In this document: positions 1-64,000 of the stretch, piece by piece
Numbering within the stretch: position 1 is the stretch's first letter
How the letters are laid out: the number at the start of each line of letters is the position of its first letter
Assembly: GCA_017881075.1 (NCBI GenBank)
Contig: JADGRH010000001.1
Coordinates: 59,639-123,638 of the forward strand
Direction of reading: 5' to 3'
Length of the DNA: 64,000 bases
Origin: Minisyncoccota bacterium
GTDB taxonomy: Bacteria > Patescibacteriota > Minisyncoccia > Phycocordibacterales > CAJBRS01
Program-made: the position numbers and the translations under genes
The notes under the pieces: model-generated
Database searches by the model: none
The model's input: the letters and a program-made list of their open reading frames with translations, nothing else
What the model was told of the DNA's origin: nothing

Positions 1-3000
1 GCAACCTCATCTATATTCAGGGTGAATGCTAATGGCAACGTCGGCATCGGGACGACGACACCGGGGTATAAGTTACACGTTAAGTCGGCTAGTGATATTC
101 AATTTGCTCTCGACGTTGATAGTGGAGGTAGATACACAAGTCAATATTTTCTGAATAATGGCTCAACTCGTGCGGTTAATTTTTGGGACGAGACGAGTAA
201 TAATTTAACAATTGGAACATCGCACTCGGGCGCAGATTTGATTTTCAATCGGGGATTAAATGCTGCAGCAATGACGATTAGTGGAACTACAGGCAACGTC
301 GGCATCGGGACGACGACGCCTAGTACAAAATTGTCAGTGGCAGGTCAAGGATTCTTTGAAACTTCGACTGAAACCCCAGTGGGTTCTGGAACTCCTGGTC
401 CTGGGATAAGGATTGGGTATCTTACAAGCGGTGATTATGGATATATAACTTCAAGTAATTCTGGTGTAGCGGCTAAAAACTTGGTTTTGCAGCCTGGCGG
501 AACTGGAAATGTGGGTATCAATCAAACTGTGCCATTAGATTTGCTTCATATAGCAGGTGATAACATAGCTACGATAAGATTGCAAAACACAATCTCTGGT
601 GGAAAAACGTACCAAATCGGTTCCGCCATTTCTGGTGTAAGTAATGCAGGTTTTCAAATCTATAATGTTACCAACTCAAGAAGTGAAATGGTAATTGATA
701 CAAACGGCAACGTCGGCATCGGGACGACGGCGCCGGGTGGAAAACTAAGTGTCTCCGGCGGTGCCGCTATTGGCTCATCTTACGCTACCACTGCAGTTTC
801 GGATGGAAATCTCATAGTTTCTGGTTCTTTGGGCATCGGGACGACGACTCCTGGATCTAAACTCGACATCTGGGGAAATCTCAATGTGGCTACTGGCACC
901 ACTCCGGCACTTTTCGTGAATACGGCGACGGGGAATGTGGGAATTGGAGTTATTAATCCCGGTAAACCTTTAGATGTAACGGGAGATATTAGAGCTAGTG
1001 GAAATCTGTTGGCAGGGGGCGGCAATGCTTATCTTTTTAACGGAGGAGTTAGATTAGGAAATTCTTCTGGAGAAATTGATCTTTCTGCTAACGATATGAT
1101 TTACGGACCCAATGCCGGAACAACCAATCATATATTCAAGATCGGAGGAAATGAAATCGCTAGGATAAATTCAACAGGAATCGGCATCGGCACGACAACC
1201 CCAGGAGCAAAGCTACATGCTCTTTCCACCACCGAGCAATTAAGACTAGGATACGATGCTTCAAACTACAATTCCTTCACTGTCGGTTCGACTGGAAGTC
1301 TCACAGTCGCCGCTGTAGGAACTAATCCTAATATCACCCTTACACCTGGTGGAACGGGGTATACCATATTGAACGGCAACGTCGGCATCGGAACGACGGC
1401 GCCGGGTCAAAAACTTGATGTGGCAGGAAACATTAATGTTTCAACTAATTCTGCCTATATGTATAACGGCCTGAATGTCATCACCGCATCAACTACATTG
1501 AGTAATTATTTCTTCGGTGGTTCTGGTAACTTAACAATGACTGGAAACGCCAACACCGCCAGTGGTTATCAGGCGCTCTATAGCAACACCACTGGAACCA
1601 CCAACACCGCCAGTGGTTTTCGTGCGCTCTATAGCAACACCACTGGAACCTACAACACCGCCAGTGGTATTAATGCGCTCTATAGCAACACCACTGGAAC
1701 CCGCAACACCGCCAATGGTCTTGGAGCGCTCTATAGCAACACCACTGGAGGCAATAATGCGGGATATGGTATCAACTCTGGCTACGGCCTCACCACTGGG
1801 AACAATAACACCTTAATCGGACCTTCTGATTCTGTGGTCGCTTCATACAATCAGGTTACTACTGGCTCTAACAACATTTCAATCGGCAACAATGTCGCCG
1901 TGGCCAGCCCAACGGCAAGTAATCAATTGAACATTGGTAATCTTATCTATGGTACAGGCTTGAATGGCACGGGAGCGACGATAAGTGGCGGCAACGTCGG
2001 CATTGGGACGATTGCCCCAGACAAAAAACTCGAAGTCAATTTAGGAACATCAGATGCTCTCCGACTCACTTACAACGACTCTGATGGAAGTGCGGCTAAC
2101 TATACGGATTTCAATGTTTCTTCCGTCGGAAGTTTGACCATTGCTCCCACAGGAACTAATCCTAATATTACTCTCACCCCAGGAGGAACGGGGTATACCA
2201 TATTGAACGGCAATGTTGGGATTGGGACGAGCACGCCGACGTTGCCATTGGTTGTTAACGGCAAAATTATGAGCTATGGGAACAGTACTAACCAGATTAC
2301 TATGTCACCGGCGGGCAATGGCGTAGACAGTTACGCTCATTTGCAAATATTCAACACCGCAGGGTATGGTCAGGGCTATTTGGATTTTTATACCTATCCC
2401 GGCCAGGGTCTGGGTACACCTACGGTAAGATGGCGGGGCGTTGACCTCGGCAGCTACACCGGTGGCCACGTATTCTCGGCTTCCGCCGCCTCGCAGAACG
2501 GCGCTTCCACGGATGTCTTATTCGTTGGAAATACCGGAGCTACTGGCGTACTTACTAATCATTTTGGCGTAGGTGTGTTAACTAACGCGCCAGTATCGGC
2601 GTTGGATGTTAACGGCGGGGTAAGCATCGGTTCATACGCCGCTGTTAACGCGGCCCCGAGCAACGGGTTAATTGTCAGTGGCAACGTCGGCATCGGGACG
2701 ACGACACCAGGATTTAATCTTCAGGTTGCAGGTACTGGAGTTTCAGCGGCATTTGGGGCGGCGGCAAATAATAACGGAGCGGGGGTTGCTTTCTTGGGGT
2801 CAAGCACTGGCAAAAATTTCTTTATCGGTAATCAATATAATATAGGTGGCGCTTTGGAGATTACGCCATCGACTGCCAATGGCGGTTCCACTTTCACGAC
2901 GCCTGTTGTCACAATTTTAAGCACCGGCAACGTCGGCATCGGGACGACGGCGCCAGGCACCAAACTGGAAGTGGTTGGTACGGCTTCTTCTACTGGTTTG

Positions 3001-6000
3001 CAGGTTAATGGCAACGGAGCAATCACAGGAACGATAAGTGCACCAACTTTTGTAGCTACCACAAACAATATCGCGTTCCTTTCACTAAAATCACTTTCTT
3101 CTACAATTGGAGTGGGAGTTACAAATGGAGATGTTCTTTCATTTGACTGGGGCGGAATATATCCAAAGGGGTATCAATTCAGAACATCGGCGACACAGGG
3201 GATTAATATAGATAGTTCAGGCAACGTCGGCATCGGGACGACGGCGCCAGGGGCATCTTTGCAAGTTGCTGGCACTGGTATATGGTCTAGCGTTTACGGT
3301 TTTTCTGCCGGTGGGAACGCGCCACTTGCAGTTGGCACAGCAGTACTTCGTACGGGTAATGACTTCCGTATTCAGGACGATGGTAGTTTTAAAATAAATC
3401 AAAGTGGCGCGGCGGCATTCCTGACAATATTAAACACCGGCAACGTCGGCATCGGCACGACGGCACCTAGGGAAAAACTTGATGTTGCGGGAAATATCAC
3501 CACGGATTGGGCAGACCGCTTCATTGGAACTGAATATCAAGATGGCTCTACTTACAGAATGGGTATGAAAGTAGTTACTTCAGATAGAGATTTGCAGATA
3601 ATTAACAAGAGCGCAGGAGAGAATTTTTCGGGAATTTCCTTTCATACGGGGACTGGTCCAACGGAGCGTATGAGAATTGATAAGGGCGGCAACGTCGGCA
3701 TCGGGACGACGAATCCTGGAAACAAGTTAGTTGTGAGCGGAGCCGGTTATACTTATGCAGAGGTAGATGCAAGTTCGAGCAGCGGAACATATTCCGGAGG
3801 TTATCGTGCATATAATGATGTCGGGGCACAGGTATTATTGGATATTTATGCCAGCTCCAGTGTGGGCACATATCTAGGCCAGCCTCTTTCTAATCTTGTA
3901 AGGTTAACGGATTATAGCGGTTCAAGCGGTATTGCCATAGGCACATACACAAATACTCCGCTCACGTTAGGCACCAATAATTCGGCAAGGTTGGTAATCA
4001 ATGGTGCAGGCAACGTCGGCATCGGGACGACGGCACCGAGTGCGAAGTTACAAGTAAATGTAGCCAGTGGGTATGCAAATACTTGGTGGTCAAATGATAG
4101 TGTAACTACTCCATTTAGCGCTATTTACGGAGCTCACGTTGTTGGGTCATTCGGTCAAAATTATTCAACGGGTGGAGGTGCTGATTTTGCTGGATTTAGT
4201 CACGCAAATAACGAAGTCGGGGTGGAATTTGACGGATATGTAGGGGGAACTAGTCCTACAGCACCTGCACTTTTATTGGCAGGTTGGAAGTCTAATGGCA
4301 CTACGGGTGCTTCGGCGATGAGTGGAACAGATATTATTGCGCAGATTGCGGCTGGTGCGTCTCCTGTTGTGACAGTTCAAGCAAACGGCAACGTCGGCAT
4401 CGGGACGACGTCACCTGTCTCAAAATTAGATGTCTCAGTAACTTCACCAGGGTCAACAAACTTTGGTTTAAGTGTGCGGGATTCTACCGTAACCCCAACG
4501 TATGCCAGTAATGCAGATAATCTTTTAACTGTAAGAGGGGCAGGCAGTTCGGTAACTACTTGGAAAGGAAGAATTACTGCAGGTGGAGATAATGTGGAAT
4601 TTCTTATGGGTGAATACAATTCTCTTGCTTGGTTAGGAGCGCATAATGCCGCCCTCAATGCTTGGACTAACATATATATTAACCCTGATGGTGGGTCAAA
4701 TGCATACATTGGAGATTCAGGTGGTGGAGTTAACAATATCCCAGTTCCGATTCTTGCGGTAATTAACAGCACCGGCAACGTCGGTATCGGGACGACGGCG
4801 CCAGATGTAAATCTAGCAATTGGTTCACAGTTACTTGGTGCGCAAGGATTAAGCGGAGCCGTCTTAAACCTTGGTGGTAGTTCCTCTCAAATGCCAGGCA
4901 TAAATATTGGGCAAGACGCTACTCACGCCATAGAGTTTTATTGGATAGGCAATGCGACACCTGGAAGTGCGACTGCTGCGTTGGAAACCTCTGGCTACTT
5001 AAATCCATTTGCTATTAACGGTTCAAAAACAACCATACAAAGTGCGGCTGGAAATGTGATATTGGCGACAGGTGGTGGCAACGTCGGCATCGGGACGACG
5101 GCACCGGGTGGAAAACTAAGCGTGTCCGGCGGTGCAGCTATTGGCTCATCTTACGCTACCACCGCAGTTTCGGATGGAAATCTCATAGTTTCTGGTTCTT
5201 TGGGCATCGGGACGACGGCGCCGGGGTCAAAGATTCAGGCTGTAGGAGGATATATATCAACTTTTGATAACACTGGATACGGACCTGCATTTATGCAAGG
5301 CGCAAGTGGTGTTTCATATTTCGGCAACACCGGGACTTCAAGAATTGCTTTCGGGAACAATACTAATTATGAAAGGATGACGATTTTAGATAACGGCAAC
5401 GTCGGCATCGGGACGACTACTCCGGGTTTTCTTCTCACTGTTGCTGGCACTTCCAACATCACCGGAGCGGCGATATTCGGATCGACTCTAGGAGTTACTG
5501 GTGCAACAACTCTTTCTTCAACTTTGGGCGTCACCGGCCAAACAACTCTGGCGAATGCTTCATCAACGAATCTCACCGTCTCCACTAATTCATATCTTGG
5601 AACTGTGCAGTCAGGAACTTGGAATGGAACGACCATTGCTGTAGCAAACGGAGGCACTGGCCAAACCACATACACTAATGGCCAACTCCTGATTGGTAAC
5701 ACTACCGGCAATACTCTTACAAAAGCAGCTTTGACAGGCACTACAAATCAAGTAGTAGTGACAAATAGCACAGGTTCAATCACTCTTTCCACTCCGCAGG
5801 ATATTGCTACGGCCTCCACTCCAACCTTCGCCTCAACCACTCTTTCAAACTTTACTCTAGGATCCATCCCATTCTTCGGCAGTAGTGGAAAACTGGGTCA
5901 AAACAATGCCAACTTTTTCTGGGATGGTACCAATAACAGATTAGGGATTGGGACATCTACTCCCGATACGCTCCTTACCGTTGCAGGAAACGGAAGATTC

Positions 6001-9000
6001 ACCGGCACCCTCTCCGCTTCAAATCTCTCCGGCACCAACACTGGCGATGTAACTCTAGGAGCAATTGCTGCTACTCCAAACGCAAACGGAGCTTCTCTTT
6101 CCGGGCAAGTCTTAACTTTGCAGCCAGCCTCGACTTCCTTTGGCGGTGTCGTTACAACCGGAACTCAATCGTTTACAGGAGATAAGACCTTTACATCAAA
6201 CTCACTCGCAGCTTTACAAGTTACGGGGAGTAACACAGGAAGAACCTCTATCACTGTTCAAAATACGAACGCATCAGGTAATGCATCATTCTACTTTCAA
6301 AATGATAGAGGTAGCTTCAATTCATACGGAGGCCTTTTGACAGGAGGTTCGTCAGATGTAGGAGGTACTTTATTTGGGCTTGCTCGTGCGGACAGAACCT
6401 TCTTGATAAATGATGGTACTAATGCTCTAGGACTTGCTCTTGGTACTTTGACAGCACAGCCATTGACACTAGGAACGAATAATTTGGCACGGGTCACAAT
6501 TCTAAGTGGTGGTAATGTCGGAATTGGAACGACAGCACCGACCAGCACACTTGAATTATATAGAGGCGATAACAATATCGGGCCAACTCTTACTTTGAAT
6601 AATCCTACTGGAAATGCAGGCACCGCCGGATCAGCAATAGACTTTCTCGGTTATAGCGGAGCGAGCCAGCCGGTTACTAATAGGATTAAAACCATCGACG
6701 ATGGAGCTTATGGCTATCATTTAGCATTTCTCACCAAAGCGGATTCTTCGGGAGGAGCACTTTTTGAAGCAATGAGGATACAAGGAGGCACGGGCAATGT
6801 TGGGATCGCCACCACCACTCCGGGCTTTCCACTTACAGTGACAGGCGCTTCTAATTTCACCGGCGCCCTCAACTTTAACGGCGCCGCTGGATCTTCCGGA
6901 AACATCCTCCAATCAAACGGATCGGGAAGCGCTCCAAGCTGGGTATCAACCACCACACTCGGTACCATTGCGGTAAACCAAGGCGGCACCGGCCAAACTA
7001 CTTATACAAACGGCCAGCTCTTGATCGGAAACACCACCGGAAATACATTAACAAAAGCAACTCTCACGGGCACCGCTAACCAAGTGAATGTTACGAATGG
7101 TGCTGGTTCAATTACCCTTTCTACTCCTCAAAATATTGGTACCACATCCTCTCCCACATTTAACTCTCTCAATATCGCTAATGGATCAACATATAGCGGT
7201 TGGATAGGTAATTTCGGGCTAGGCTCTGACTGGGTTGGATTTACCGCAGATGGAGCGCAAAGTGCTTCAAAGTATGCATTCGAAGCAACGGCATCATATG
7301 GTGAAACTGTTTTTAATGCTAACGGTGGGGGGACATTGCCCTTCATTGATTTTCGATTTTCCAACGGGGGTGTTGAACCTATTACCAGAATATATGGGTC
7401 TGGCGGGCTCTATTTTGGTAGTGTGGCTGGTGCTGCTGACCCCGGTTTACAGAACCTCTCTATCTTTTCTGGAAAACTTGGTGTTGGGGTTCTAACCGCT
7501 TCTGCCAAAATCCACGCCCTTTCCACCACCGAGCAATTAAGACTAGGCTACGATGCTTCCAACTACAATTCCTTTACTGTCGGTTCAACTGGAAGTCTCA
7601 CAGTCGCCGCTGTAGGAACTAATCCTAATATTACCCTCACGCCGGGCGGAACTGGGTATACCATATTGAACGGCAACGTCGGCATCGGGACGACGACGCC
7701 AGGGGCAAAGTTGAGTGTCAAAGGTGGTGGTACTACAACAGGTCTTAACTTCCAAACTACAAACTCTAATAACCTACCTTTGGTCACAATATTAGACTCC
7801 GGCAACGTCGGCATCGGGACGACGACGCCGGGGAATAAACTCCAGATAAATGCTGCTCTTGCCACTGCTTCTGAATCTTTGCTTCGTCTGTCTGGAGGGT
7901 CAACGGGATTTGCCGGGACCAATGATGCAGGCACTGCGTATTCTCTTGTGTTCGATGGTACTGCATATAGTGTTGGTACTGGAGTTGTGCAACGTGATGG
8001 TGCAAAGATTGAGATGGCAAAAGAGGCATCGTGGAACGAAGCCGGTGGTGGCGGCGGTCCGCTTGGAGCATTATTGTTCTACACGAGTGCAGGTTCAATT
8101 GCATCTCCGAAGCTAACGGAAAAAATGAGAATAACAAGTCTCGGCAACGTCGGTATCGGGACGACGGCGCCGGATTCGAAGTTAACTATTTCATCAAATA
8201 CCGCAACCTTACCGTCTGGGGCAGCCACACTTCGTATTGCTGAAGCCGATACCGTGCAGACTAGCGCGGTTATAGACGCTTTTGCTACTAACGGGCTTTT
8301 TAACTTTCGACGGGCCGACACTACGGCGGCAAGCCCCTCGGCGGTCCAGTCTGGTGAAAATTTGGGCGTGTTCGGCGCCGCTGGCTACGGAACCAGTGCT
8401 TATTCCGGCACCCGCGCCCGCGTTGGATTTTTTGCCGATGAGACTTGGACGAATACTGCTAATGGAACATCCATTCGCTTTAGCACTACGCTCAATGGCG
8501 CCGCCACAGCGGGAGGCACGGAACGCATGAGAATAGATAACGCCGGCAATGTCGGAATTGGCACCTCCACCCCGGACCAAGCTCTAGTTGTATCAGGTAC
8601 GGCAAGAGCTACCAACTTACTCGGAGGTGCCACAACTCTTTCAACCGATGCTTCAGGTAACATTATTCGTACTCCATCAGACATTAGTCTCAAGGAAAAC
8701 ATCCAAAATATCGATAGCGCTGATGCTCTAAGCCAGGTTCTAGCCCTTCAAGGAGTAACCTATTTCTGGAAGGACAAGGCGAGATTTGGCACTGCCCAAG
8801 AAATTGGCTTCATCGCCCAGCAAGTCGAACCGATTGTCCCCCAAGTAGTTAAAAGCGGAGGAGCCTACAAATCCCTTAACTATGGTAACTTAACAGCCGT
8901 CCTTGCCAGCGCCATTCAAGAGCAACAAAAACAGATTACAGCCAATGCTTCAACGACGCGGGCCAATGCCTCAAGCACCGCCTCCGCTCTTTCTTCACTG

Positions 9001-9606
9001 GATCTTAGAGTAAGTACCTTAGAGAACCTGGGACCCCAAAGAGGGGGTGGAGGAGTCAGCACTGGAATCTTTGAAGATCTCCTTTCAACACTACAATCCT
9101 TTGGCACCGAAATCGTTGACGGAGTTTCTTATATGAAGAACTTCCTTGCTGAACATCTCACTACCCAGAACTTGACTATAAAAGGCAAAGATATTACGAA
9201 GACAGGATTCACTATTTATGATCGGGCTACCGGCGATCCTATCTGCGTCTATTTTGAGAACGGGATCCAAAAGACTTCCCCAGGCGAGTGTCCCGACAGC
9301 ACAGCTACTTCAACTCCTCCAACAGACACTACCTCCATTGTCTCAGACAACAACCCCCCAATAGATCCCCTCACCGGATCCAGCACTCCTCCGATCTCCG
9401 ATATCGGATCAAATCCTCCTCCAGACCAACCCCCTCCAACACCACCACCCGCCGACCCCACTCCGCCCTCCGATCCCACCTCCTTGATAGCGCCGAGCGC
9501 CCCAACATCACCACCAGCCCCTGATACGTCAGGATCGAATCCTTCTGATTCGACGTCCGCTCCCGCTGATCCGGGCTCGGCTCCTTCCAATGGGGGAGGC
9601 AATTAG
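1..9606 (+). CDS. Giant repetitive surface/fibre-like protein (5'-truncated at window edge; >3194 aa) with C-terminal phage tail-spike-type intramolecular chaperone (peptidase S74-like) domain and Pro/Thr-rich tail
   Basis: Frame 1 is open from nt 1 with no upstream stop, and the ORF-track start at 22 is GTG. The motif GNVGIGTT(T/A)PGxKL recurs about 18 times. Near the C-terminus, 'SDISLKENIQNI...LQGVTYFWKD...IGFIAQQVEPIVPQVV...YGNLTAVLASAIQEQQ' fits the chaperone-of-endosialidase / S74 consensus. The last ~100 aa are P/T/S-rich low complexity. Stop is TAG at 9604-9606. Confidence 0.8.
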   Translation, partial: ATSSIFRVNANGNVGIGTTTPGYKLHVKSASDIQFALDVDSGGRYTSQYFLNNGSTRAVNFWDETSNNLTIGTSHSGADLIFNRGLNAAAMTISGTTGNVGIGTTTPSTKLSVAGQGFFETSTETPVGSGTPGPGIRIGYLTSGDYGYITSSNSGVAAKNLVLQPGGTGNVGINQTVPLDLLHIAGDNIATIRLQNTISGGKTYQIGSAISGVSNAGFQIYNVTNSRSEMVIDTNGNVGIGTTAPGGKLSVSGGAAIGSSYATTAVSDGNLIVSGSLGIGTTTPGSKLDIWGNLNVATGTTPALFVNTATGNVGIGVINPGKPLDVTGDIRASGNLLAGGGNAYLFNGGVRLGNSSGEIDLSANDMIYGPNAGTTNHIFKIGGNEIARINSTGIGIGTTTPGAKLHALSTTEQLRLGYDASNYNSFTVGSTGSLTVAAVGTNPNITLTPGGTGYTILNGNVGIGTTAPGQKLDVAGNINVSTNSAYMYNGLNVITASTTLSNYFFGGSGNLTMTGNANTASGYQALYSNTTGTTNTASGFRALYSNTTGTYNTASGINALYSNTTGTRNTANGLGALYSNTTGGNNAGYGINSGYGLTTGNNNTLIGPSDSVVASYNQVTTGSNNISIGNNVAVASPTASNQLNIGNLIYGTGLNGTGATISGGNVGIGTIAPDKKLEVNLGTSDALRLTYNDSDGSAANYTDFNVSSVGSLTIAPTGTNPNITLTPGGTGYTILNGNVGIGTSTPTLPLVVNGKIMSYGNSTNQITMSPAGNGVDSYAHLQIFNTAGYGQGYLDFYTYPGQGLGTPTVRWRGVDLGSYTGGHVFSASAASQNGASTDVLFVGNTGATGVLTNHFGVGVLTNAPVSALDVNGGVSIGSYAAVNAAPSNGLIVSGNVGIGTTTPGFNLQVAGTGVSAAFGAAANNNGAGVAFLGSSTGKNFFIGNQYNIGGALEITPSTANGGSTFTTPVVTILSTGNVGIGTTAPGTKLEVVGTASSTGLQVNGNGAITGTISAPTFVATTNNIAFLSLKSLSSTIGVGVTNGDVLSFDWGGIYPKGYQFRTSATQGINIDSSGNVGIGTTAPGASLQVAGTGIWSSVYGFSAGGNAPLAVGTAVLRTGNDFRIQDDGSFKINQSGAAAFLTILNTGNVGIGTTAPREKLDVAGNITTDWADRFIGTEYQDGSTYRMGMKVVTSDRDLQIINKSAGENFSGISFHTGTGPTERMRIDKGGNVGIGTTNPGNKLVVSGAGYTYAEVDASSSSGTYSGGYRAYNDVGAQVLLDIYASSSVGTYLGQPLSNLVRLTDYSGSSGIAIGTYTNTPLTLGTNNSARLVINGAGNVGIGTTAPSAKLQVNVASGYANTWWSNDSVTTPFSAIYGAHVVGSFGQNYSTGGGADFAGFSHANNEVGVEFDGYVGGTSPTAPALLLAGWKSNGTTGASAMSGTDIIAQIAAGASPVVTVQANGNVGIGTTSPVSKLDVSVTSPGSTNFGLSVRDSTVTPTYASNADNLLTVRGAGSSVTTWKGRITAGGDNVEFLMGEYNSLAWLGAHNAALNAWTNIYINPDGGSNAYIGDSGGGVNNIPVPILAVINSTGNVGIGTTAPDVNLAIGSQLLGAQGLSGAVLNLGGSSSQMPGINIGQDATHAIEFYWIGNATPGSATAALETSGYLNPFAINGSKTTIQSAAGNVILATGGGNVGIGTTAPGGKLSVSGGAAIGSSYATTAVSDGNLIVSGSLGIGTTAPGSKIQAVGGYISTFDNTGYGPAFMQGASGVSYFGNTGTSRIAFGNNTNYERMTILDNGNVGIGTTTPGFLLTVAGTSNITGAAIFGSTLGVTGATTLSSTLGVTGQTTLANASSTNLTVSTNSYLGTVQSGTWNGTTIAVANGGTGQTTYTNGQLLIGNTTGNTLTKAALTGTTNQVVVTNSTGSITLSTPQDIATASTPTFASTTLSNFTLGSIPFFGSSGKLGQNNANFFWDGTNNRLGIGTSTPDTLLTVAGNGRFTGTLSASNLSGTNTGDVTLGAIAATPNANGASLSGQVLTLQPASTSFGGVVTTGTQSFTGDKTFTSNSLAALQVTGSNTGRTSITVQNTNASGNASFYFQNDRGSFNSYGGLLTGGSSDVGGTLFGLARADRTFLINDGTNALGLALGTLTAQPLTLGTNNLARVTILSGGNVGIGTTAPTSTLELYRGDNNIGPTLTLNNPTGNAGTAGSAIDFLGYSGASQPVTNRIKTIDDGAYGYHLAFLTKADSSGGALFEAMRIQGGTGNVGIATTTPGFPLTVTGASNFTGALNFNGAAGSSGNILQSNGSGSAPSWVSTTTLGTIAVNQGGTGQTTYTNGQLLIGNTTGNTLTKATLTGTANQVNVTNGAGSITLSTPQNIGTTSSPTFNSLNIANGSTYSGWIGNFGLGSDWVGFTADGAQSASKYAFEATASYGETVFNANGGGTLPFIDFRFSNGGVEPITRIYGSGGLYFGSVAGAADPGLQNLSIFSGKLGVGVLTASAKIHALSTTEQLRLGYDASNYNSFTVGSTGSLTVAAVGTNPNITLTPGGTGYTILNGNVGIGTTTPGAKLSVKGGGTTTGLNFQTTNSNNLPLVTILDSGNVGIGTTTPGNKLQINAALATASESLLRLSGGSTGFAGTNDAGTAYSLVFDGTAYSVGTGVVQRDGAKIEMAKEASWNEAGGGGGPLGALLFYTSAGSIASPKLTEKMRITSLGNVGIGTTAPDSKLTISSNTATLPSGAATLRIAEADTVQTSAVIDAFATNGLFNFRRADTTAASPSAVQSGENLGVFGAAGYGTSAYSGTRARVGFFADETWTNTANGTSIRFSTTLNGAATAGGTERMRIDNAGNVGIGTSTPDQALVVSGTARATNLLGGATTLSTDASGNIIRTPSDISLKENIQNIDSADALSQVLALQGVTYFWKDKARFGTAQEIGFIAQQVEPIVPQVVKSGGAYKSLNYGNLTAVLASAIQEQQKQITANASTTRANASSTASALSSLDLRVSTLENLGPQRGGGGVSTGIFEDLLSTLQSFGTEIVDGVSYMKNFLAEHLTTQNLTIKGKDITKTGFTIYDRATGDPICVYFENGIQKTSPGECPDSTATSTPPTDTTSIVSDNNPPIDPLTGSSTPPISDIGSNPPPDQPPPTPPPADPTPPSDPTSLIAPSAPTSPPAPDTSGSNPSDSTSAPADPGSAPSNGGGN
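1561..1800 (+). repeat. In-frame tandem repeat of a ~60-nt unit (about 4 copies), encoding NTASG(Y/F/I)xALYSNTTGTxNTASG, inside the giant gene
   Basis: 'caccgccagtggt...gcgctctatagcaacaccactggaacc' is visibly repeated at 1553-1612, 1613-1672, 1673-1732 and 1733-1790. Confidence 0.8.
9391..9412. repeat. REP-type palindrome TCCGATATCGGA (family 1), embedded in the 3' coding region of the giant gene (encodes PISDIGS)
   Basis: Perfect 12-nt palindrome tccgatatcgga preceded by the partial duplicate tccgatc. The same core recurs at 10438-10449 and 10520-10531. Confidence 0.7.
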
Positions 9607-9736
9607 GGGTTAATCCCTGGTGGAATATCCATAAGAGGTTAAACCTCTTATGAGCTTAGATCATGATTACTCACATTCTCATTAAAATTTCCATTAGTTT
9701 ACACGGTCTAGTGATGAAATATCGCTTCTTATTGCG

Positions 9737-9762
9737 TTAATCTACGCTCCGATCTCCGATGT
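9737..9762. repeat. REP-type near-palindrome (tccgatgtcgga variant of family 1) overlapping the 3' end of the RAYT gene
   Basis: 'gctccgatctccgatgtcggatcgaattc' has the same core as the other family-1 copies with a central 2-nt change. It encodes the RAYT C-terminus ...PTSEIGA. Confidence 0.6.
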
Positions 9763-10428
9763 CGGATCGAATTCATCAAATGTTTTGGCAGGACTTGTGT
9801 CTACAAAATGCTTGTACTCTTCTTTGTTTTTAAATTGGTCAAGAATGAGATCTGTTTTTAGAAGTTCACCCCATCGATTTTCTCCAATATAGTCTTGATA
9901 ACTTGACCAAGGGTAAAAATGCTCCTTGTCCTTCCACCCCGGCAATTCTCGTGCGTTTCTATGAATATAAGCGGAAAGGTGAAGCAACTGAGTATTGTCT
10001 GCAATCAGGACACTCTTGAAAGCTCCCTGAAATAGGTGCCCGATATGAAGATCTTTATATTTTTCATTATTATATTTTGTAGCGGAGATTATAATTCTTT
10101 GTAAATATTTTGATAAAGCTCCATCTTTTTTCCCTGTCGCACTTAGATGAAAGTGATTTGGCATTAAGCCGAATGAGTGAAGCTCCACAGTACGCGAGGC
10201 GACGATCTCCGAAATGATTTTCTTGCTGACCTGGAATTTCCTATGCTTCTCAAAGTATTTTACATATTGAGATAGGTGGCTAAACTTAATCGGAGACTGG
10301 AAAAATAGTATAGTAAAAAGAAAGCGAATATAATCGCGATTATCGTGGAAAATAATTTGCTTATTATTGCCTCTGCTAAGGAGATGAAATACTTCACCCG
10401 CGGCCAAGTTGTCTTTTCTATATGGCAT
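9742..10428 (-). CDS. REP-associated tyrosine transposase (RAYT; IS200/IS605-like HUH transposase)
   Basis: HUH motif 'LMPNHFHL', size about 228 aa, conserved Tyr-containing C-terminal region, flanked on both sides by family-1 REP palindromes. Confidence 0.75.
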   Translation of the reverse strand: MPYRKDNLAAGEVFHLLSRGNNKQIIFHDNRDYIRFLFTILFFQSPIKFSHLSQYVKYFEKHRKFQVSKKIISEIVASRTVELHSFGLMPNHFHLSATGKKDGALSKYLQRIIISATKYNNEKYKDLHIGHLFQGAFKSVLIADNTQLLHLSAYIHRNARELPGWKDKEHFYPWSSYQDYIGENRWGELLKTDLILDQFKNKEEYKHFVDTSPAKTFDEFDPTSEIGA

Positions 10429-10458
10429 TATCTTCCGATCTCCGATATCGGAAGATTT
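10429..10458. repeat. REP hairpin (family 1): atcttccgat-ctccgat-atcggaagat
   Basis: 10-bp inverted repeat arms atcttccgat/atcggaagat enclosing the tccgatatcgga core, immediately 5' of the RAYT start. Confidence 0.7.
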
Positions 10459-10512
10459 AGTATAATAATAGCAGATGAAATATCCTTAAAGATTTTATGA
10501 AAATTTCTTTTT

Positions 10513-10558
10513 ACACTAGTCCGATATCGGAGAATGGAGGATTCATTATACTAGTGAT
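10513..10558. repeat. REP hairpin (family 1) with outer cactagt/actagtg inverted repeat
   Basis: 'cactagtccgatatcggagaatggaggattcattatactagtg' contains the perfect tccgatatcgga core and 7-bp outer inverted repeats. Confidence 0.6.
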
Positions 10559-21819: not shown

Positions 21820-22062
21820 TTAGTGAATGAATTTAAGAGAAGTGGAAGTGCTCGTCGTTGTTGCATTCATGGTAGAAGTGCTGAAAGTTGAAATTATGGA
21901 ATTCCAAATATTTCCTGGGCGCTCCAATTGGCTCATAATTTGACCGGTAAGGCCTCCCTGCTGATTATGATAACTGCTATATCCGATAGTGGCGACGAAT
22001 GCCACAGCAACAATAAGAACAATCAACAGCCCGATAAAGCCGTGTTTTTTAGTGGTTTTCAT
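21820..22062 (-). CDS. Small hypothetical membrane/secreted protein
   Basis: 80-aa ORF with an N-terminal hydrophobic segment and no recognisable domain. Confidence 0.3.
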   Translation of the reverse strand: MKTTKKHGFIGLLIVLIVAVAFVATIGYSSYHNQQGGLTGQIMSQLERPGNIWNSIISTFSTSTMNATTTSTSTSLKFIH

Positions 22063-22088
22063 ACGCTTAAAATCATAACATATCTCTT

Positions 22089-22107
22089 GCAGAGGTCTGA
22101 CCTCTGC
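22089..22107. repeat. REP palindrome family 2: GCAGAGGTCTGACCTCTGC
   Basis: Perfect 19-nt palindrome. Copies occur at 22089-22107, 22190-22208 and 22916-22934. Confidence 0.8.
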
Positions 22108-22189
22108 AGCCGAGTTTCTGCAGATTTTTTTTATCTATAATTTATATTTCCTTTAATGTTTCTTCATAGTCGGTACTATAAAATATCTT

Positions 22190-22208
22190 GCAGAGGTCAG
22201 ACCTCTGC
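22190..22208. repeat. REP palindrome family 2 copy (central A variant) directly abutting the RAYT start codon
   Basis: gcagaggtcagacctctgc, followed 3 nt later by the RAYT ATG at 22212. Confidence 0.8.
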
Positions 22209-22211
22209 AAG

Positions 22212-22907
22212 ATGAGAAAAGAACCATTTAATGTCGGATCATACATTCATGTAATAAAAAGAGGCCATAGAAAGTCTCTCATTGTTCGGGATGAGAATGA
22301 CAGAAATCATTTTGAGCGAATCTTGTATTACCTGAATCATAAGAAATCATTGCCCGAACGTTGGTCTCAGATTTTAAGAGAAAAGAGAATTAAGAATTTT
22401 GATTTTCCTAAGGAGTGGGGAAAAAGAAAGCCTTTGGTAAAAATTGTAGCTTATGCTCTAATGCCGAACCATCTTCATCTATTTCTGAAAGAAATTGTTG
22501 AAGGAGGAGTAACGACTTTCATGAGAAAAATAGGCAATAGCATGACAGCTCATTTTAATCTCAGACATGAAGAATCTGGAACGCTTTTTCCAGGTGCCTA
22601 TCGGTCTAAAACAATTGAAGACGATGCTTATTTTCGTTACTGTGGAGTATATATCATGGTCAAAAATATTTTTGAGCTTTATCCTGGTGGACTCGAGCGA
22701 GCAAAAAAAGAATTTGAGATAGCATTTCAATGGGCTTTAAATTATAGATTCAGCAGTTTGCCGGAATATCTGAATATCAGGACTCAACCGATAATCGATA
22801 AGGAATTGTTAGGGGAACTCTTTTTCGGTCCTAAGGACTTCAAGGATTTTGCTAGAGATTGTATTTTAGGAAGGAAACCTGATTTTAATGAGATAAATCT
22901 AGAGTAA
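22212..22907 (+). CDS. REP-associated tyrosine transposase (RAYT, second distinct copy/family)
   Basis: HUH motif 'LMPNHLHLF', about 231 aa, bracketed by family-2 REP palindromes. The ORF-track start at 22188 lies inside the REP, so the second Met (22212) was chosen. Confidence 0.75.
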   Translation: MRKEPFNVGSYIHVIKRGHRKSLIVRDENDRNHFERILYYLNHKKSLPERWSQILREKRIKNFDFPKEWGKRKPLVKIVAYALMPNHLHLFLKEIVEGGVTTFMRKIGNSMTAHFNLRHEESGTLFPGAYRSKTIEDDAYFRYCGVYIMVKNIFELYPGGLERAKKEFEIAFQWALNYRFSSLPEYLNIRTQPIIDKELLGELFFGPKDFKDFARDCILGRKPDFNEINLE

Positions 22908-22915
22908 ATGAAATC

Positions 22916-22934
22916 TGCAGAGGTCTGACCTCTG
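22916..22934. repeat. REP palindrome family 2 copy 3' of the RAYT gene
   Basis: ctgcagaggtctgacctctgcag is a 23-nt palindrome 9 nt after the RAYT stop. Confidence 0.8.
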
Positions 22935-22990
22935 CAGGAAATTTATGGGTTGCGCCGATAATTCTAATTTGCTACACTACCTCCTACACT

Positions 22991-34682: not shown

Positions 34683-34787
34683 GGGAGAGAATGTCGGGCG
34701 AAAACCGAAGGTTTTCGCCCATTTTTATATCACAGGAATTAAAAATATCGAAGTCTGACTTCGATAAATCCTTGTTATAATGGCGAA

Positions 34788-59663: not shown

Positions 59664-59666
59664 CAA

Positions 59667-59713
59667 AAAAGAAAACAGCGGCCGCCTAAAGGCGGCCGCT
59701 GTTTTCTTTTTGG
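59667..59713. terminator. Bidirectional Rho-independent terminator overlapping the thrS stop
   Basis: aaaagaaaacagcggccgcc-taaa-ggcggccgctgttttcttttt. Confidence 0.8.
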
Positions 59714-61620: not shown

Positions 61621-64000
61621 TCATAATTCTTTAATCGCCTCCGCGATCATGCTGGTCTCGCCGTTGCGGTCGGACATCCGGCCTTTGACCGCAATGCATT
61701 TTTCCAGTGCGATAAAAGATTTGTATTTCTCACAAGTCTTTGGAAACACCACCACCTCAATATTTCCGGAGAAATCGGCGATCTTCAGGAAATACATATT
61801 TTCTCCTTTTTTAGTCCTCACCTCTTTTAATTCTTCTACAATACCTTCAACTACGCCGAGCATCCCTTCTCTTAACTCCGCTTTCGTCTTGGCGATATTT
61901 GTTTGTTTTTTCTCTAGCTGTTCTTTGAATTTATCCAAAGGATGACCGCTGATGTAAAGGCCGAGAAGCTCCTTTTCCCAGATGAGCTTCTCGGCCGCCG
62001 TTGCTTCTGGCGCCGCCGAGAGGCGCAAGGATGGTAGGGAAATGCTCGCTCCCAGAGCCCCGAATAATGACTCCTGATTAGTTGGAGCGCGATGTGTTTC
62101 CTTATTGTATTGAATAATGTCTTCAATATTGGCAAGTAACTGGCCTCTTTCGCCGAAGTGATCCATCGCCCCCGCCTTTATCAAAGCTTCCAATGATTTT
62201 TTATTTAAATTTTTATCGCTTACTCGGTTCAGCAAATCCTCCAGAGATTTGAACTTACCGCCCTTCTTCCTCTCATTGATAATGGAATGAGCAATGCCTT
62301 CGCCGAAATTCTTGATGGTCGTTAGGCCGAAACGAATTTGATCTGGCGGTAAGGAAGTCTGACTTCCCTTAGGAAGTCTGACTTCCTTACCGCTCTTTAT
62401 CACCGTAAAATCCTCAAAACTTTCATTGATATCCGGCGGCAGAACGGGGATCCTCATTCGTTTGCATTCCGTGATGATCTCCGAGATCTTCTCCACATCT
62501 CCCGATTCTGCCGTCATCACTGCAGCCATATAAATACATGGGAAGTTGGCCTTCATGTAAGCGGTCTGGTAAGCCACCTTGCCGTAGCTGGCAGCATGGG
62601 CTTTGTTGAATCCGTAGGCCTGAAAAGGTTCAAAAAGTTTCCATAATTTCTCGGCAAAATCTTTTGTCTGACCCTTCTTGATGATACCCTCGATCAATTT
62701 TTCTTTTTGAGCGGCCATTTCTTTTGGAATTTTCTTACCCATAGCCTTTCGGAATTTATCCGCCTCGAGCCAGGAGTAGCCGGCAAGCTCTATGGCGCTA
62801 AGGAGTACGTCGTCCTGATAGACAATAAGACCATAAGATTCCTCCAGATATTTTTTCATTCGGGGATCGGGGTAGGAAATAAGATTCGGATTATTTTTTC
62901 TTCGGACATATTCCGGGATCACTTCCATCGGGCCGGGGCGATAGAGAGCCACCATGGCGTTAATGTCGTGAATGGTGGAAGGTCGAAGGTCTTTCAAGTA
63001 ACGGGTCATGCCGGAGCCGTTCAACTGAAAGAGTCCGGCCGTTTCTCCTTTGGCTAGAAGTTCAAATGTTTTCTTATCATTTAAAGGAACGTTTTCAATA
63101 TCAATATCAATTCCCTCAATGGTTTTCACCAGAGAGACGGAGTCGGCTAAAATGGCAAGATTTCGGATACCGAGAAAATCAAATTTTAAAAGCCCGGCAT
63201 TACTTTCATCTACAGAATGCATGTCGTATTGGGTGATGATCTTACCCTCATCTAATCCGGCGCTTTTCGGATCAAATTGTAGCGGCACAATTTCAGTCAG
63301 AGGAATAGGGGAGATAACCACTCCGGCGGCGTGAACGCTAATGTGTCTTGCCAAGCCTTCAATTTTTTTAGCCATGTCAATGATCGTTGCCACATCTTTG
63401 TCTTGTTGGTAAAGCTGTTTCAGCTCCGACACTTTCGCAAAGGCCCGATCAATGGTCATGGGAAATCCTTGGGCGCCGATAGGAATTAATTTTGAAATTT
63501 TGTCACCCACGTCGTAAGGGAAGCCGAGAGCCCGGGCAACGTCACGCACCGCTCCGCGGGCCATCATCGTTCCGAATGTTCCAATTTGCGCCACTTTGTC
63601 TTTTCCATATTTCTCTTTAGCATAAGCAATAACTTCATCACGACGATTGTCGGCAAAATCCATATCAATGTCCGGCGCCGATGGTCGCTCAAGATTAAGG
63701 AATCTTTCAAAAGGTAATTTATATTCAAGTGGGTCTACATTGGTAATACCGGCGAGATATGTGACTATGGAACCGGCGACAGAACCTCGGATAGTGGTCA
63801 GGATCTTGTTCTCGTGTGCAAAACGCATCAGGTCGGACACTACCAGGAAATAGGAGGCATAGCCCTTCTTTTCAATGATATTCAGTTCGTATTCAATCCT
63901 TTCTTTTACCTTTTCCGATAGTTCCAATTTCCGCCTTTCAAGACCGCTATATACAAGCTCGCGCAATTCCTCATCGATCGATTTGCCTTTTGTCGCTTTA
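61621..64000 (-). CDS. dnaE: DNA polymerase III alpha subunit, C-terminal ~790 aa (5' part lies beyond the window end)
   Basis: '...GTFGTMMARGAVRDVARALG', 'DIDIDF', fingers/beta-binding region and a C-terminal OB fold. The frame stays open to nt 64000 (the ORF-track 'start' at 63966 is a TTG inside a continuing frame). Confidence 0.85.
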   Translation of the reverse strand, partial: KATKGKSIDEELRELVYSGLERRKLELSEKVKERIEYELNIIEKKGYASYFLVVSDLMRFAHENKILTTIRGSVAGSIVTYLAGITNVDPLEYKLPFERFLNLERPSAPDIDMDFADNRRDEVIAYAKEKYGKDKVAQIGTFGTMMARGAVRDVARALGFPYDVGDKISKLIPIGAQGFPMTIDRAFAKVSELKQLYQQDKDVATIIDMAKKIEGLARHISVHAAGVVISPIPLTEIVPLQFDPKSAGLDEGKIITQYDMHSVDESNAGLLKFDFLGIRNLAILADSVSLVKTIEGIDIDIENVPLNDKKTFELLAKGETAGLFQLNGSGMTRYLKDLRPSTIHDINAMVALYRPGPMEVIPEYVRRKNNPNLISYPDPRMKKYLEESYGLIVYQDDVLLSAIELAGYSWLEADKFRKAMGKKIPKEMAAQKEKLIEGIIKKGQTKDFAEKLWKLFEPFQAYGFNKAHAASYGKVAYQTAYMKANFPCIYMAAVMTAESGDVEKISEIITECKRMRIPVLPPDINESFEDFTVIKSGKEVRLPKGSQTSLPPDQIRFGLTTIKNFGEGIAHSIINERKKGGKFKSLEDLLNRVSDKNLNKKSLEALIKAGAMDHFGERGQLLANIEDIIQYNKETHRAPTNQESLFGALGASISLPSLRLSAAPEATAAEKLIWEKELLGLYISGHPLDKFKEQLEKKQTNIAKTKAELREGMLGVVEGIVEELKEVRTKKGENMYFLKIADFSGNIEVVVFPKTCEKYKSFIALEKCIAVKGRMSDRNGETSMIAEAIKEL

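Follow-up and report, generated by a model that had tools for sequence, protein, structure and literature searches.

Positions 22085-22940 of the window (the whole stretch of DNA that was analysed, 64 kb) probably form a REPtron-type unit, in which a single-copy RAYT-like Y1 HUH gene is bracketed by three cognate perfect hairpins. The unit is real but of a fairly ordinary REP/RAYT type, and its gene comes from a branch of the family that is specific to one lineage, the ultra-small Patescibacteria. Bracketing of genes by hairpins was seen throughout the family, and hairpin sequences covaried with those of the proteins; hairpin copies away from the gene and inside other genes, as well as synteny of orthologues, were observed; and the window protein had the fold and the catalytic residues of a Y1 HUH enzyme.

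The unit and its hairpins

The features of the unit and its neighbours were as follows.

20888-21817 (strand not given): RF1 gene (prfA), with GGQ and PET motifs read from the translation
22088..22108 (no strand): distal upstream hairpin, A-type TGCAGAGGTC-T-GACCTCTGCA, 21-nt perfect palindrome with a 10-bp stem
22103..22132 (+): terminator-like hairpin TCTGCAG...CTGCAGA with a T8 run (consensus scan)
22109..22184 (+): AT-rich spacer between the two upstream hairpins, 26% G+C, presumed promoter region
22185..22213 (no strand): proximal upstream hairpin, A-type, 29-nt perfect palindrome with a 14-bp stem, centre A
22212..22907 (+): Y1 HUH tyrosine transposase-like gene, RAYT-like, Patescibacteria clade, 231 aa
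22915..22937 (no strand): downstream hairpin, A-type, 23-nt perfect palindrome, centre T
22991-23716 (strand not given): rpsB, the neighbour on the other side of the unit

The earlier note had described three perfect palindromes of 19-23 nt around an HUH gene; all three were recovered, but the middle one measured 29 nt. The 19-mer GCAGAGGTC-W-GACCTCTGC is common to them (22089-22107, centre T; 22190-22208, centre A; 22917-22935, centre T), against a chance expectation of 0.04 (mean of 100 shuffles), and no fourth copy was found in the 64-kb window with 3 mismatches allowed. That note had named absence of the palindromes elsewhere in the genome as a refuting condition, and the outcome does not refute it: the other 63 kb contained no A-type copy, but hairpins of sister families lay away from Y1 genes in the window, and the 19-mer was present in other Patescibacteria. 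As single-stranded DNA, the A-type hairpins folded stably on either strand (-9 to -14 kcal/mol; z, -4 to -8), and the distal and proximal copies can pair with each other in a long stem of 24 bp (-30.6 kcal/mol). The sub-threshold plant miRNA-precursor matches that were all Rfam returned merely reflect this pairing of the two upstream palindromes and were rejected. The same spacing of two upstream hairpins, as at 22088 and 22185, was seen at other loci (L053, L060, L099, L100, L115, and L129).

The distal hairpin lies 27 nt from the start of a divergent 80-aa ORF (21820-22062, minus strand), and its right arm is overlapped by the terminator-like element (22103..22132), whose predicted function could be to block prfA read-through into the unit. 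A terminator-like hairpin is known at the left end of IS200, with another hairpin over the translation start. The spacer contains TATAAAAT at about 22177-22184 (read from the sequence), and a sigma-70 consensus promoter scan of 22109..22184 found none. The ORF-track start, TTG 22188, falls within the proximal palindrome, in agreement with the overlap noted before; the conserved start, though, is ATG 22212, which gives a protein beginning with MRKEPF as in all homologues. The proximal palindrome covers the first two bases of this ATG, and its RNA fold was -25.4 kcal/mol (z, -5.7). The downstream hairpin begins 8 nt past the stop codon.

The ORF at 22212-22907 carries the previously reported LMPNHLHLF motif. 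The protein scored 24.5 bits with Pfam Y1_Tnp (above the cut-off of 23) and 24.8 bits with NCBIfam REP_Tyr_transpos (NF047646), below the equivalog cut-off of 80; by this curated score, or by the Y---NP motif, the predicted protein is not a canonical RAYT. Residues N86, H87, H89, Y147, and N152 were invariant in 31 homologues (HUH motif, N86-H87-L88-H89), Tyr147 was placed on the helix after strand 4, and all 15 family-invariant residues of the 31-sequence alignment were kept in the full-length window protein. A search of PDB sequences with the protein and with the profile gave nothing significant (ISDra2 TnpA merely at E = 0.5; weak AriB matches were judged to be spurious), so that a fold search was needed. 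The model (pLDDT 92.7) had the predicted Y1 fold, and its best PDB match with Foldseek was 4er8_A, E. coli TnpAREP with a REP hairpin (E = 4.9e-5); the TnpA proteins of IS608, ISDra2, and IS200 were close fold matches too. The HUH and Tyr residues, for which the earlier note had proposed a check, are hence in place. The class-2 Tyr motif Y---NP was absent from the window protein and from the clade consensus (Y147-I-M-V-K-N152-x-F-E-L-Y-P), which have Asn at +5 of Tyr147 with no Pro after it, that is, Y-x4-N in place of Y---NP. Gln was not present at +4 of the Tyr; with a threshold of E <= 1, no match to NCBIfam transpos_IS200 and no C-terminal HTH-type domain in Pfam were found. The remaining motifs were NHLH, LFPG, and SSL in the window protein and NHFH, LFQG, and SSL in the clade consensus, the Pro for Gln in the FQ motif (LFPG) being confined to the window protein among the 31 aligned sequences. 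The 90% identity cluster of the protein had one member on one contig.

The gene has a G+C content of 35.5% and a GC3 of 31%, compared with 42-46% and 44-48% for neighbour genes. The distance between prfA and rpsB is 1.17 kb here and 50-300 nt in relatives, which fits the proposed insertion between these two genes. Orthologues were syntenic upstream of rpmE-prfA in six organisms (PrfA, 75-99% identical), and the hairpin type was kept; L075 was a seventh locus with the same arrangement (the PrfA identity range refers to the six). When sharp unit boundaries were sought in the related syntenic loci L082, L088, and L090, the difference was gradual with no break (nucleotide identity, about 76% in the gene and 82-89% in prfA). 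Clade members as a whole were found in many different genomic contexts.

Hairpin-protein pairs in relatives and in this genome

The gene is a member of a large clade found in Patescibacteria (676 clusters at 50% identity in the profile search, E <= 1e-30). Perfect hairpins were present on both sides in 42 of the 69 unique clade relatives with enough flank, and 41 pairs were cognate (41/69), a perfect hairpin peculiar to the gene being placed immediately upstream of its start and repeated at its stop. As a rule, members of the family have a cognate hairpin that lies at the stop codon or overlaps it. The apex GTC-W-GAC was shared by 27 of the 41 cognate pairs, and the identity of the hairpin arms was correlated with that of the proteins (Spearman 0.42, permutation p = 0.001). 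Far copies of the hairpins were rare in relatives (11 in 222 kb), and doublets were seen at L044, L079, and L084. Across the 41 aligned hairpin pairs, neither a guide tetranucleotide (GTAG/GTGG) 5' of the hairpin foot nor any guide or target motif beside the hairpins was conserved; the foot is (T)GCAG here and GTAG in L011. An orientation rule based on the central base was rejected: 20 loci had matching upstream and downstream centres and 20 had opposite ones, and therefore nothing can be inferred on orientation.

The exact 19-mer was multi-copy in other Patescibacteria, with 14 exact copies on 5 contigs of a Kaiserbacteria MAG. It flanked Y1 genes in L011, L027, and L042, and it was found in frame in MurB, MiaA, a Mur ligase (murE-like), and a TsaD-domain protein of other Patescibacteria. 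MurB (L006) was not accepted as a proven insertion, the alignment having no net length gain, unlike those of MiaA and DnaE. The Y1 gene flanked in L027 is only 32% identical; a REP family is therefore not confined to one RAYT clade, a point that the earlier note had proposed to test. The REP core had also been put forward as a strain marker; this idea fails because at least five lineages of Patescibacteria have the 19-mer, and it is also found in Chloroflexota, Limnocylindrales, and Clostridia, where it is a hairpin plus T-run terminator. The matches of the latter three groups were rejected as Y1 elements, since these terminators are unrelated to Y1 genes.

The other Y1 gene and hairpins of the window, and the hairpin families, were as follows.

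9389..10531 (no strand): four B-type hairpins, CCGATCTCCGATRTCGGA, of the first Y1 gene
9630..9652 (no strand): orphan C-type hairpin CATAAGAGGTT-A-AACCTCTTATG, gene-less
9742..10428 (-): first Y1 gene of the window, 228 aa, NHFH, YIHRNA, Y1_Tnp 37.6 bits
34746..34766 (no strand): gene-less D-type hairpin TATCGAAGTC-T-GACTTCGATA, intergenic
62348..62391 (no strand): E-type hairpin doublet, two copies of GGAAGTC-T-GACTTCC, in frame inside dnaE
Family A: GCAGAGGTCWGACCTCTGC, cognate to gene 22212-22907
Family C: AAGAGGTTWAACCTCTT, orphan in the window
Family D: ATCGAAGTCWGACTTCGAT, cognate to P0021
Family E: GGAAGTCWGACTTCC, doublet in dnaE

The B-type sites were at 9389-9410 (inside a 3194-aa ORF), 9747-9768 (at the 3' end of the first Y1 gene), 10430-10456 (just upstream of its start), and 10520-10531. 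The protein of this gene is 28% identical to that of 22212-22907, and the A-type palindrome differs from CCGATCTCCGATRTCGGA, in line with the two RAYT genes with unrelated palindromes within 13 kb of the earlier note. The C-type apex, GAGGTT-W-AACCTC, flanks clade relatives elsewhere (L073, L097, and L115). The stem at 34746..34766 is identical to the hairpins flanking the paralogue P0021 (L053), which is apparently on the same contig as the two window genes (its contig is recorded with an equal length, 169,236 bp), is 49% identical to the window protein, and has a layout of two upstream hairpins and one downstream with a different hairpin sequence. Paralogues scored 31-39 bits with REP_Tyr_transpos and 37-39 bits with Pfam Y1_Tnp. 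The dnaE doublet codes for a 15-16-aa insertion that is absent from the DnaE proteins of Taq (2hpi) and E. coli (2hnh). The proposal of multiple REP/RAYT systems was strengthened: no fewer than three Y1 genes are present in the genome (two in the window, plus P0021), they are 28-49% identical, a different hairpin belongs to each, and five hairpin families were found in the 64-kb window. Hairpins with the apex GTY-W-RAC numbered seven in the window, including the in-frame dnaE doublet, against 0.24 expected. A hairpin at 14154-14181 was set aside as an incidental palindrome in a conserved transketolase motif (VGPDGGSHQALED), with no inserted element.

Alternative explanations and proposed mechanism

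The unit might be read as an autonomous IS200/IS605-type insertion sequence, in which the outer hairpins are the subterminal hairpins of the left and right ends and the 0.85-kb unit transposes as ssDNA. A single Y1 gene has hairpins directly at its start and its stop in an IS200-like manner, the unit occupies a 1.17-kb gap that is 50-300 nt in relatives, neighbour genes have much higher G+C and GC3, clade members occur in many contexts, and the TnpA proteins of IS608, ISDra2, and IS200 are close fold matches of the window protein; a mobile IS would be suited equally well by the low G+C and by so compact an arrangement of hairpin, ORF, and hairpin, which in this respect count against the REPtron reading. 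We consider the IS unlikely, however: the 64 kb contain one copy, identity among the paralogues is 28-49% as against about 99% for subclass 1.1 (PMC6006769, Table 1), the orthologues are syntenic across organisms with PrfA 75-99% identical, and hairpins are found without the gene. The protein itself, with 231 aa, NHLH, no Y---Q, and no NCBIfam transpos_IS200 match, also argues against it.

A decaying or inactive relic, with an enzyme that no longer works and hairpins that are its fossils, is a very improbable reading. The Gln to Pro change in the otherwise conserved FQ motif (this protein only, of 31), the weak Pfam score (24.5 bits, compared with 37-39 for the paralogues), and the lack of dispersed A-type copies in the window would agree with decay; the ORF, however, is full-length with all 15 family-invariant residues and a confident fold prediction, and recent maintenance is suggested by the three perfect hairpins, which agree with one another at 19/19 positions of stem and flank. 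Hardly any weight was given to the view that the palindromes are ordinary terminators, or dsDNA operators of a dimeric regulator, and no substrates of the encoded enzyme. Such elements would not be expected to place the same sequence at the 5' and 3' ends of a gene or a gene-specific stem at both ends in 41 relatives, covarying with the protein, and in-frame copies in dnaE, miaA, and murB cannot be operators or terminators of those genes. These points stand against the terminator-like hairpin and T8 run that follow the distal copy, the terminator-like character of the proximal and downstream copies on the minus strand (terminator scan), the occlusion of the start codon by the proximal copy, and the role of the 19-mer in Chloroflexota and Clostridia, where it forms a terminator hairpin followed by a T run.

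Further points against the REPtron reading are the missing gene-less A-type copy in the other 63 kb, the rarity of far copies in relatives, the RAYT score below the NCBIfam cut-off, Y-x4-N in place of Y---NP, the Pro in the FQ motif, and the lack of a conserved GTAG-like tetranucleotide. For this preferred reading, we infer hairpin binding, cleavage, mobilisation, and regulation by analogy with known systems. The hairpins would extrude on single-stranded DNA, for example, on the lagging-strand template, as for TnpAREP and IS608 TnpA, and recognition by the protein would involve both the conserved GTC-W-GAC apex and the outer stem, which is particular to each gene. A metal on H87/H89 and the nucleophile Tyr147 would then cut and rejoin the strand, and hairpin singlets or doublets would be copied or moved to new sites, in-frame sites within genes included. 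The Y1 gene would normally stay in place and pass on vertically, and the hairpins at its own ends would keep enzyme and substrate linked. The hairpins probably also throttle expression, the proximal one by sequestering the start codon and the distal one with its terminator-like tail.

Significance and comparison with known systems

REP/RAYT systems have been studied mainly in Proteobacteria, and long 2.1-like Y1 proteins had been reported without REP partners; a literature search for REP/RAYT in Patescibacteria or CPR yielded no relevant paper. The present clade is a large one from ultra-small, host-dependent bacteria, with a very clean pairing of one gene and one hairpin. Its conserved apex and varying, protein-covarying stem make a natural data set on hairpin reading by Y1 enzymes, and the clade could supply orthogonal pairs of ssDNA-cutting enzyme and hairpin. 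In essential genes such as dnaE and miaA, the in-frame hairpins point to one possible origin of the unusual protein insertions of these genomes. It is conceivable, at slightly below an even chance, that the clade is an undescribed Y1 HUH subclass of the Patescibacteria's own (about 230 aa, Y-x4-N, related to the 'REP-less' 2.1), with a private perfect hairpin per gene, a common GTC-W-GAC apex, several orthogonal pairs in a roughly 1-Mb genome, and hairpins that colonise essential genes (dnaE, murB, miaA, and mur ligase) in frame. If this is true, such enzyme-hairpin pairs would drive the insertion of loops into proteins and the plasticity of the reduced genomes of Patescibacteria.

E. coli TnpAREP (RAYT, TnpAY1 subclass 2.2; 4er8), the best structural match, has the Y1 HUH fold in common with the window protein, and its gene is likewise single-copy with cognate flanking hairpins (REPtron) and gene-less singlets and doublets (REP/BIME). 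The identity is about 12%, and the window protein is longer (231 vs 165 aa), with an insertion after helix 1, a helical C-terminal extension, and the Tyr motif YIMVKN in place of YIHYNP. Unlike E. coli REPs, the hairpins here are perfect and symmetric, without a bulge or a conserved 5' GTAG, and they are present in few copies (0 to about 14 seen) instead of hundreds.

Rickettsia palindromic elements (RPE) are in-frame palindromic repeats in protein genes. As with these elements and with intragenic REPs (Di Nocera 2013, Additional file 3), palindromes of the present class are tolerated in frame in essential genes (dnaE in the window; murB, miaA, and Mur ligase in relatives); at 19-45 nt, however, they are much shorter, and a cognate Y1 gene can be identified for them. 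TnpA of subclass 1.1 is short (about 150 aa) with DH[VI]H and Y---Q, and class 2 has Y---NP (PMC6006769, Table 1). The unit has the fold, the catalytic residues, and subterminal hairpins on both sides in common with IS200/IS608/ISDra2, but it has no DH[VI]H, Y---Q, or tnpB, its protein exceeds theirs by about 80 aa, the 64-kb window showed no set of near-identical copies, and the orthologues are syntenic.

The TIRYT/TIRtron group (TnpAY1 subclass 2.1; PMC3733652, PMC6006769) is similar in protein length (about 238 aa) and has NH[YF]H, FQ (for W-E/Q), and SS after the Tyr helix in common with the clade consensus. Both have several divergent copies per genome, the flanking repeats differ from copy to copy, and dispersed repeats are few or absent. 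REP-like hairpins were reported to be missing from subclass 2.1, and its TIRs to contain GGGGWSAS (Di Nocera 2013, PMC3733652; Quentin 2018, PMC6006769), whereas the flanks here are perfect GCAGAGGTC-W-GACCTCTGC hairpins with the GTC-W-GAC apex and no GGGGWSAS TIRs, there is no HTH-type C-terminal Pfam domain, and the Tyr motif is without NP.

In comparison with the REPIN-RAYT systems of Pseudomonas (Bertels & Rainey; PMC3116915, PMC5581495), the flanking repeats here are far fewer (57-140 occurrences were reported for RAYT Groups 2 and 3), many copies are intragenic and in frame, and the host is a Patescibacteria genome of roughly 1 Mb. The two are alike in the presence of several RAYT genes in one genome, each paired with a REP family of its own, in REP doublets capable of forming a long hairpin (here in dnaE, L044, L079, and L084), and in vertical inheritance, which is indicated here by the syntenic orthologues.

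Palindromes and gene between prfA and rpsB

The earlier note had described a second REP/RAYT unit inserted between prfA and rpsB. Its account of palindromes bracketing the ORF of a Y1 (HUH) transposase-like gene (22212-22907, plus strand, 231 aa) was accurate, with three copies of the A-type hairpin (the unit's own) at the places it had given.

A-type palindromes of the unit
22089-22107, 22190-22208, 22917-22935: 19-mer GCAGAGGTC-W-GACCTCTGC, three copies in the window
22088-22108 (21 nt), 22185-22213 (29 nt), 22915-22937 (23 nt): complete perfect palindromes

Chance matches to the 19-mer averaged 0.04 in dinucleotide-preserving shuffles of the window, and no fourth copy was found in the 64-kb window with up to three mismatches allowed. 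The palindromes are perfect, as had been described, and the outer two fall within the 19-23 nt then given; the middle one is longer. By folding, the hairpins were stable as single-stranded DNA on both strands (-9 to -14 kcal/mol, z -4 to -8). The ORF is listed from TTG 22188, inside the 29-nt palindrome, so that the reported overlap of a palindrome with the ORF-track start holds; we assigned the true start to ATG 22212 because MRKEPF opens every homologue, and the first two bases of this ATG are also inside the palindrome.

The unit is preceded by rpmE, prfA (RF1, whose translation shows the GGQ and PET motifs) and a short ORF on the minus strand (80 aa) that is not conserved, and followed by rpsB and tsf, in agreement with the place first assigned to it. 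Its G+C content is 36% (GC3, 31%) versus 42-46% (GC3, 44-48%) in the neighbouring genes, a composition that would suit foreign DNA or DNA that moved recently. In seven metagenome loci a member of the same clade (Patescibacteria relatives of the Y1 protein) lies upstream of rpmE-prfA, and in the four of the seven reaching through rpsB (L066, L079, L082 and L084) the prfA-rpsB spacing is 50-300 nt with no Y1 gene between. Relative to these four, the 1.17-kb gap in the window contains an insertion, as the earlier note had it; its right end falls after 22937 and before the TGCTACAxT box conserved at rpsB (around 22966). Orthologues in six of the seven loci kept the position and the hairpin type (ACAAGTC-W-GACTTGT), at identities of 75-99% for PrfA and 64-82% for the Y1 protein. 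In L082, L088 and L090, nucleotide identity was about 76% in the Y1 gene versus 82-89% in prfA, with no sharp break, and the Y1 orthologues were 70-79% identical where PrfA was 97-99% identical; this Y1 protein therefore evolves much faster than its housekeeping neighbours. Such a pattern points to vertical inheritance of a fast-evolving gene and not to an active IS.

Family and fold of the Y1 protein

The 231-aa product scored barely above the Pfam Y1_Tnp cut-off (24.5 bits versus 23), its top NCBIfam match, REP_Tyr_transpos, was below cut-off (24.8 bits versus 80), and a PDB sequence search with it gave nothing significant. The protein search returned 84 relatives, those with names being Patescibacteria, Taylorbacteria, Kaiserbacteria or Parcubacteria 'transposase' or 'RayT', and a profile search of 1.84 billion representatives returned 676 clusters at E <= 1e-30 and 9,133 at E <= 1e-10. 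In the alignment of 31 homologues (42-55% identical), N86, H87, H89, E94, G99, N116, G123, F126, Y147 and N152 were invariant; the HUH and Tyr residues that the earlier note had proposed to look for (N86/H87/H89 and Y147) are thus present. The AlphaFold model built from this alignment was confident (pLDDT 92.7, pTM 0.90), and the closest solved structure was E. coli TnpAREP with its REP hairpin (4er8_A, E = 4.9e-5), followed by IS608, ISDra2 and IS200 TnpA. In the model, strand 3 opens with the HUH motif and Tyr147 is on the long helix that follows strand 4, a predicted placement as in these four proteins.

Hairpins in the window, the clade and other genomes

Several REP/RAYT systems per genome, as previously suggested, were borne out: the two Y1 genes of the window and P0021, a third Y1 gene that appears to lie elsewhere on the window's contig, each have a different hairpin. 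The NCBI contig recorded for P0021 is as long as that of the window protein (169,236 bp). P0021, read on Logan contig L053, is 49% identical to the unit's protein and has the same layout (upstream, a pair of hairpins with about 100 nt between them, and a third across the stop codon); its hairpins are built from ATCGAAGTC-W-GACTTCGAT (L053 5770-5798, 6462-6484), unlike those of the unit.

Other Y1-related features of the window
9742-10428, minus strand: first Y1 gene, 28% identical to the unit's protein
9747-9768 (overlapping the 3' end of that gene), 10430-10456 and 10520-10531 (just upstream of its start): its B-type palindrome, CCGATCTCCGATRTCGGA
9389-9410: fourth B copy, CTCCGATCTCCGATATCGGATC, 21/22 identical to 9747-9768, inside a 3194-aa ORF (22..9606) and in its reading frame, where the C-terminal part is rich in Pro, Ser and Asp
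9630-9652: C-type orphan, a perfect hairpin (CATAAGAGGTT-A-AACCTCTTATG) in the stretch that separates the 3194-aa ORF from the first Y1 gene; partner gene, if any, outside the window
34746-34766: D-type gene-less perfect hairpin, TATCGAAGTCTGACTTCGATA, intergenic, with a terminator on one side and on the other the start of a methyltransferase-domain gene; stem identical to that of P0021
62348-62391: E-type doublet, GGAAGTC-T-GACTTCC, in frame inside dnaE (ORF 61621..63966, minus strand), encoding KEVRLPKGSQTSLPP

When hairpins were counted that have a GTY-W-RAC apex and no fewer than 8 of 10 positions paired in the stem, the window gave seven versus 0.24 expected, namely the three A copies, the D orphan (34746), the C orphan (9630-9652) and the E doublet (62348-62391). 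The C-type apex (GAGGTT-W-AACCTC) also flanks three clade relatives (L073, L097 and L115). The dnaE-encoded KEVRLPKGSQTSLPP adds 15-16 aa to a loop of the DNA polymerase III alpha subunit, an insertion that the DnaE proteins of Thermus aquaticus and E. coli lack; no Y1 gene cognate to the E doublet was found in the window. The 3194-aa ORF runs off the window start, and towards the C terminus it is low-complexity sequence with much proline. A perfect hairpin at 14154-14181 (12-bp stem) was rejected as an inserted element, being an incidental palindrome that encodes the conserved VGPDGGSHQALED in a transketolase C-terminal subunit. A 46-nt perfect inverted repeat (59666-59711; A/T-rich arms, AAAAAGAAAACAGCGGCCGCCT/AGGCGGCCGCTGTTTTCTTTTT) between convergent genes looks like a bidirectional terminator.

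For the clade, 80 metagenome loci were fetched and 69 unique genes with sufficient flanking DNA were kept; a gene counted as bracketed if one perfect hairpin, with 7 bp or more in the stem, lay in the 160 nt upstream and another lay at the stop codon or shortly beyond it. Hairpins were found on both sides in 42 of the 69, with the same gene-specific sequence at both ends in 41 of the 42. The outer stem varies from gene to gene, while the apex is GTC-W-GAC in 27 of the 41 cognate pairs (others include GTT-W-AAC, ATC-W-GAT and GACACGNCGTGTC). Hairpin-arm identity rose with protein identity (Spearman 0.42; 1/1000 permutations as high, observed included). The central base at the two ends was the same in 20 loci and opposite in 20, so that this base gives no guide to strand or orientation, and no tetranucleotide such as GTAG was conserved beside the stems in the aligned hairpin pairs.

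A scan of one genome per species found the 19-mer at 52 loci. Matches in Chloroflexota, Limnocylindrales and Clostridia are hairpins with a T-run behind them; these are terminators and have no connection with Y1 genes. In Chloroflexota and Limnocylindrales (L001, L004, L005, L008, L009 and about 20 more) the 19-mer and T-run occur once per genome beside the conserved GGGAGCACGGGTCGTGCCGGG element; here the hairpin probably terminates a conserved gene or RNA, and its match to the window palindrome is convergent. A Kaiserbacteria MAG had 14 exact copies on five contigs as well as degenerate copies, another MAG had eight within a longer conserved repeat, and the 19-mer was also found in two Taylorbacteria, RAAC4_OD1 and a Saccharimonadales MAG. 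In the JAHJSK01 MAG (L002, L021, L025, L035) it lies inside a longer conserved repeat, TTAATTAAATTAGAGCTGTCAGAAAAGTTG-[hairpin]-CAACTT, which suggests a larger MITE-like element around the hairpin. In the Kaiserbacteria MAG and RAAC4_OD1 it is in frame, often as a doublet, in MurB, MiaA, a Mur ligase and a TsaD-domain protein.

In-frame copies of the 19-mer
L006 1047-1094 (MurB)
L044 5614-5661
L023 2860-2904
L033 5119-5137

The net insertion in MiaA was about 12 residues (alignment to 3d3q), and the MurB alignment (L006) showed no net length change, so that the MurB copy is only a candidate insertion. On these sequences, the A hairpin is scattered through related genomes in the manner of a dispersed repeat. 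The proposed use of the REP core as a strain marker accordingly fails, the 19-mer being repeated across several Patescibacteria genomes. Three loci carry it beside a Y1 gene: L011 (52% identical to the window protein; flanked by GTAGAGGTC... variants), L042, and L027 (32% identical, of another clade, YVHLNV type; doublets on both sides, 1211-1258 and 1966-2014), where the TGA stop is the palindrome centre, as at the end of the L011 gene. One hairpin therefore serves different protein clades, contrary to the idea that each REP family co-occurs only with its own RAYT clade.

Likely mechanism, alternatives and comparison with TnpAY1 classes

We infer binding, cleavage, mobilisation and regulation by the unit, the first three from the biochemistry of analogues (PMC3479197, PMC8266576) and from the TnpAREP and IS608 TnpA structures matched to the model. 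The Y1 protein would bind its own hairpin on single-stranded DNA and cleave via a 5'-phosphotyrosine at Tyr147, with the metal held by His87 and His89; rejoining of the strand would spread hairpin singlets and doublets. In computed folds, the two upstream A copies can pair as a 24-bp stem (-30.6 kcal/mol), like a REPIN, and the proximal hairpin as RNA (-25.4 kcal/mol, z -5.7) buries the start codon. A terminator-like hairpin and its T8 run share sequence with the distal copy. The buried start codon and the terminator-like element would keep expression low; IS200 expression is kept low by comparable features.

An autonomous IS200-like element would fit the compact layout, the insertion in the prfA-rpsB gap and the low G+C; it is nevertheless disfavoured by the single copy, the divergent paralogues, the synteny of the orthologues, the gene-less hairpins and the protein motifs. 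If the palindromes were regulatory and nothing else, three observations would be left unaccounted for: one gene-specific sequence at either end of the gene, its covariation with the protein, and the copies in frame within other genes. In favour of an inactive relic are the Gln to Pro change in the FQ motif, seen in the window protein alone among the 31 aligned homologues, and the weak Pfam score; against it stand the three perfect hairpins and the intact ORF.

The finding of the earlier note was correct as written; the more interesting leads are the code that pairs one gene with one hairpin throughout the family and the hairpins inserted in frame into essential genes. The literature search gave no description of REP/RAYT systems in Patescibacteria. 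Compared with the TnpAY1 classification (PMC6006769, Table 1), the clade appears similar to subclass 2.1 in length (about 238 aa), NH[YF]H and FQ motifs and an SS motif after the Tyr helix; its Tyr motif is Y-I-M-V-K-N, whereas the class-2 signature is Y---NP. The unit is best read as a REPtron (a RAYT-type gene flanked by its own cognate hairpins), as Nunvar, Ton-Hoang, Di Nocera and Quentin use the term. It lacks some marks of canonical RAYTs, namely a score above the curated cut-off, Y---NP and a GTAG guide, and it lacks the marks of TIRYTs (subclass 2.1), namely GGGGWSAS repeats and an HTH tail.
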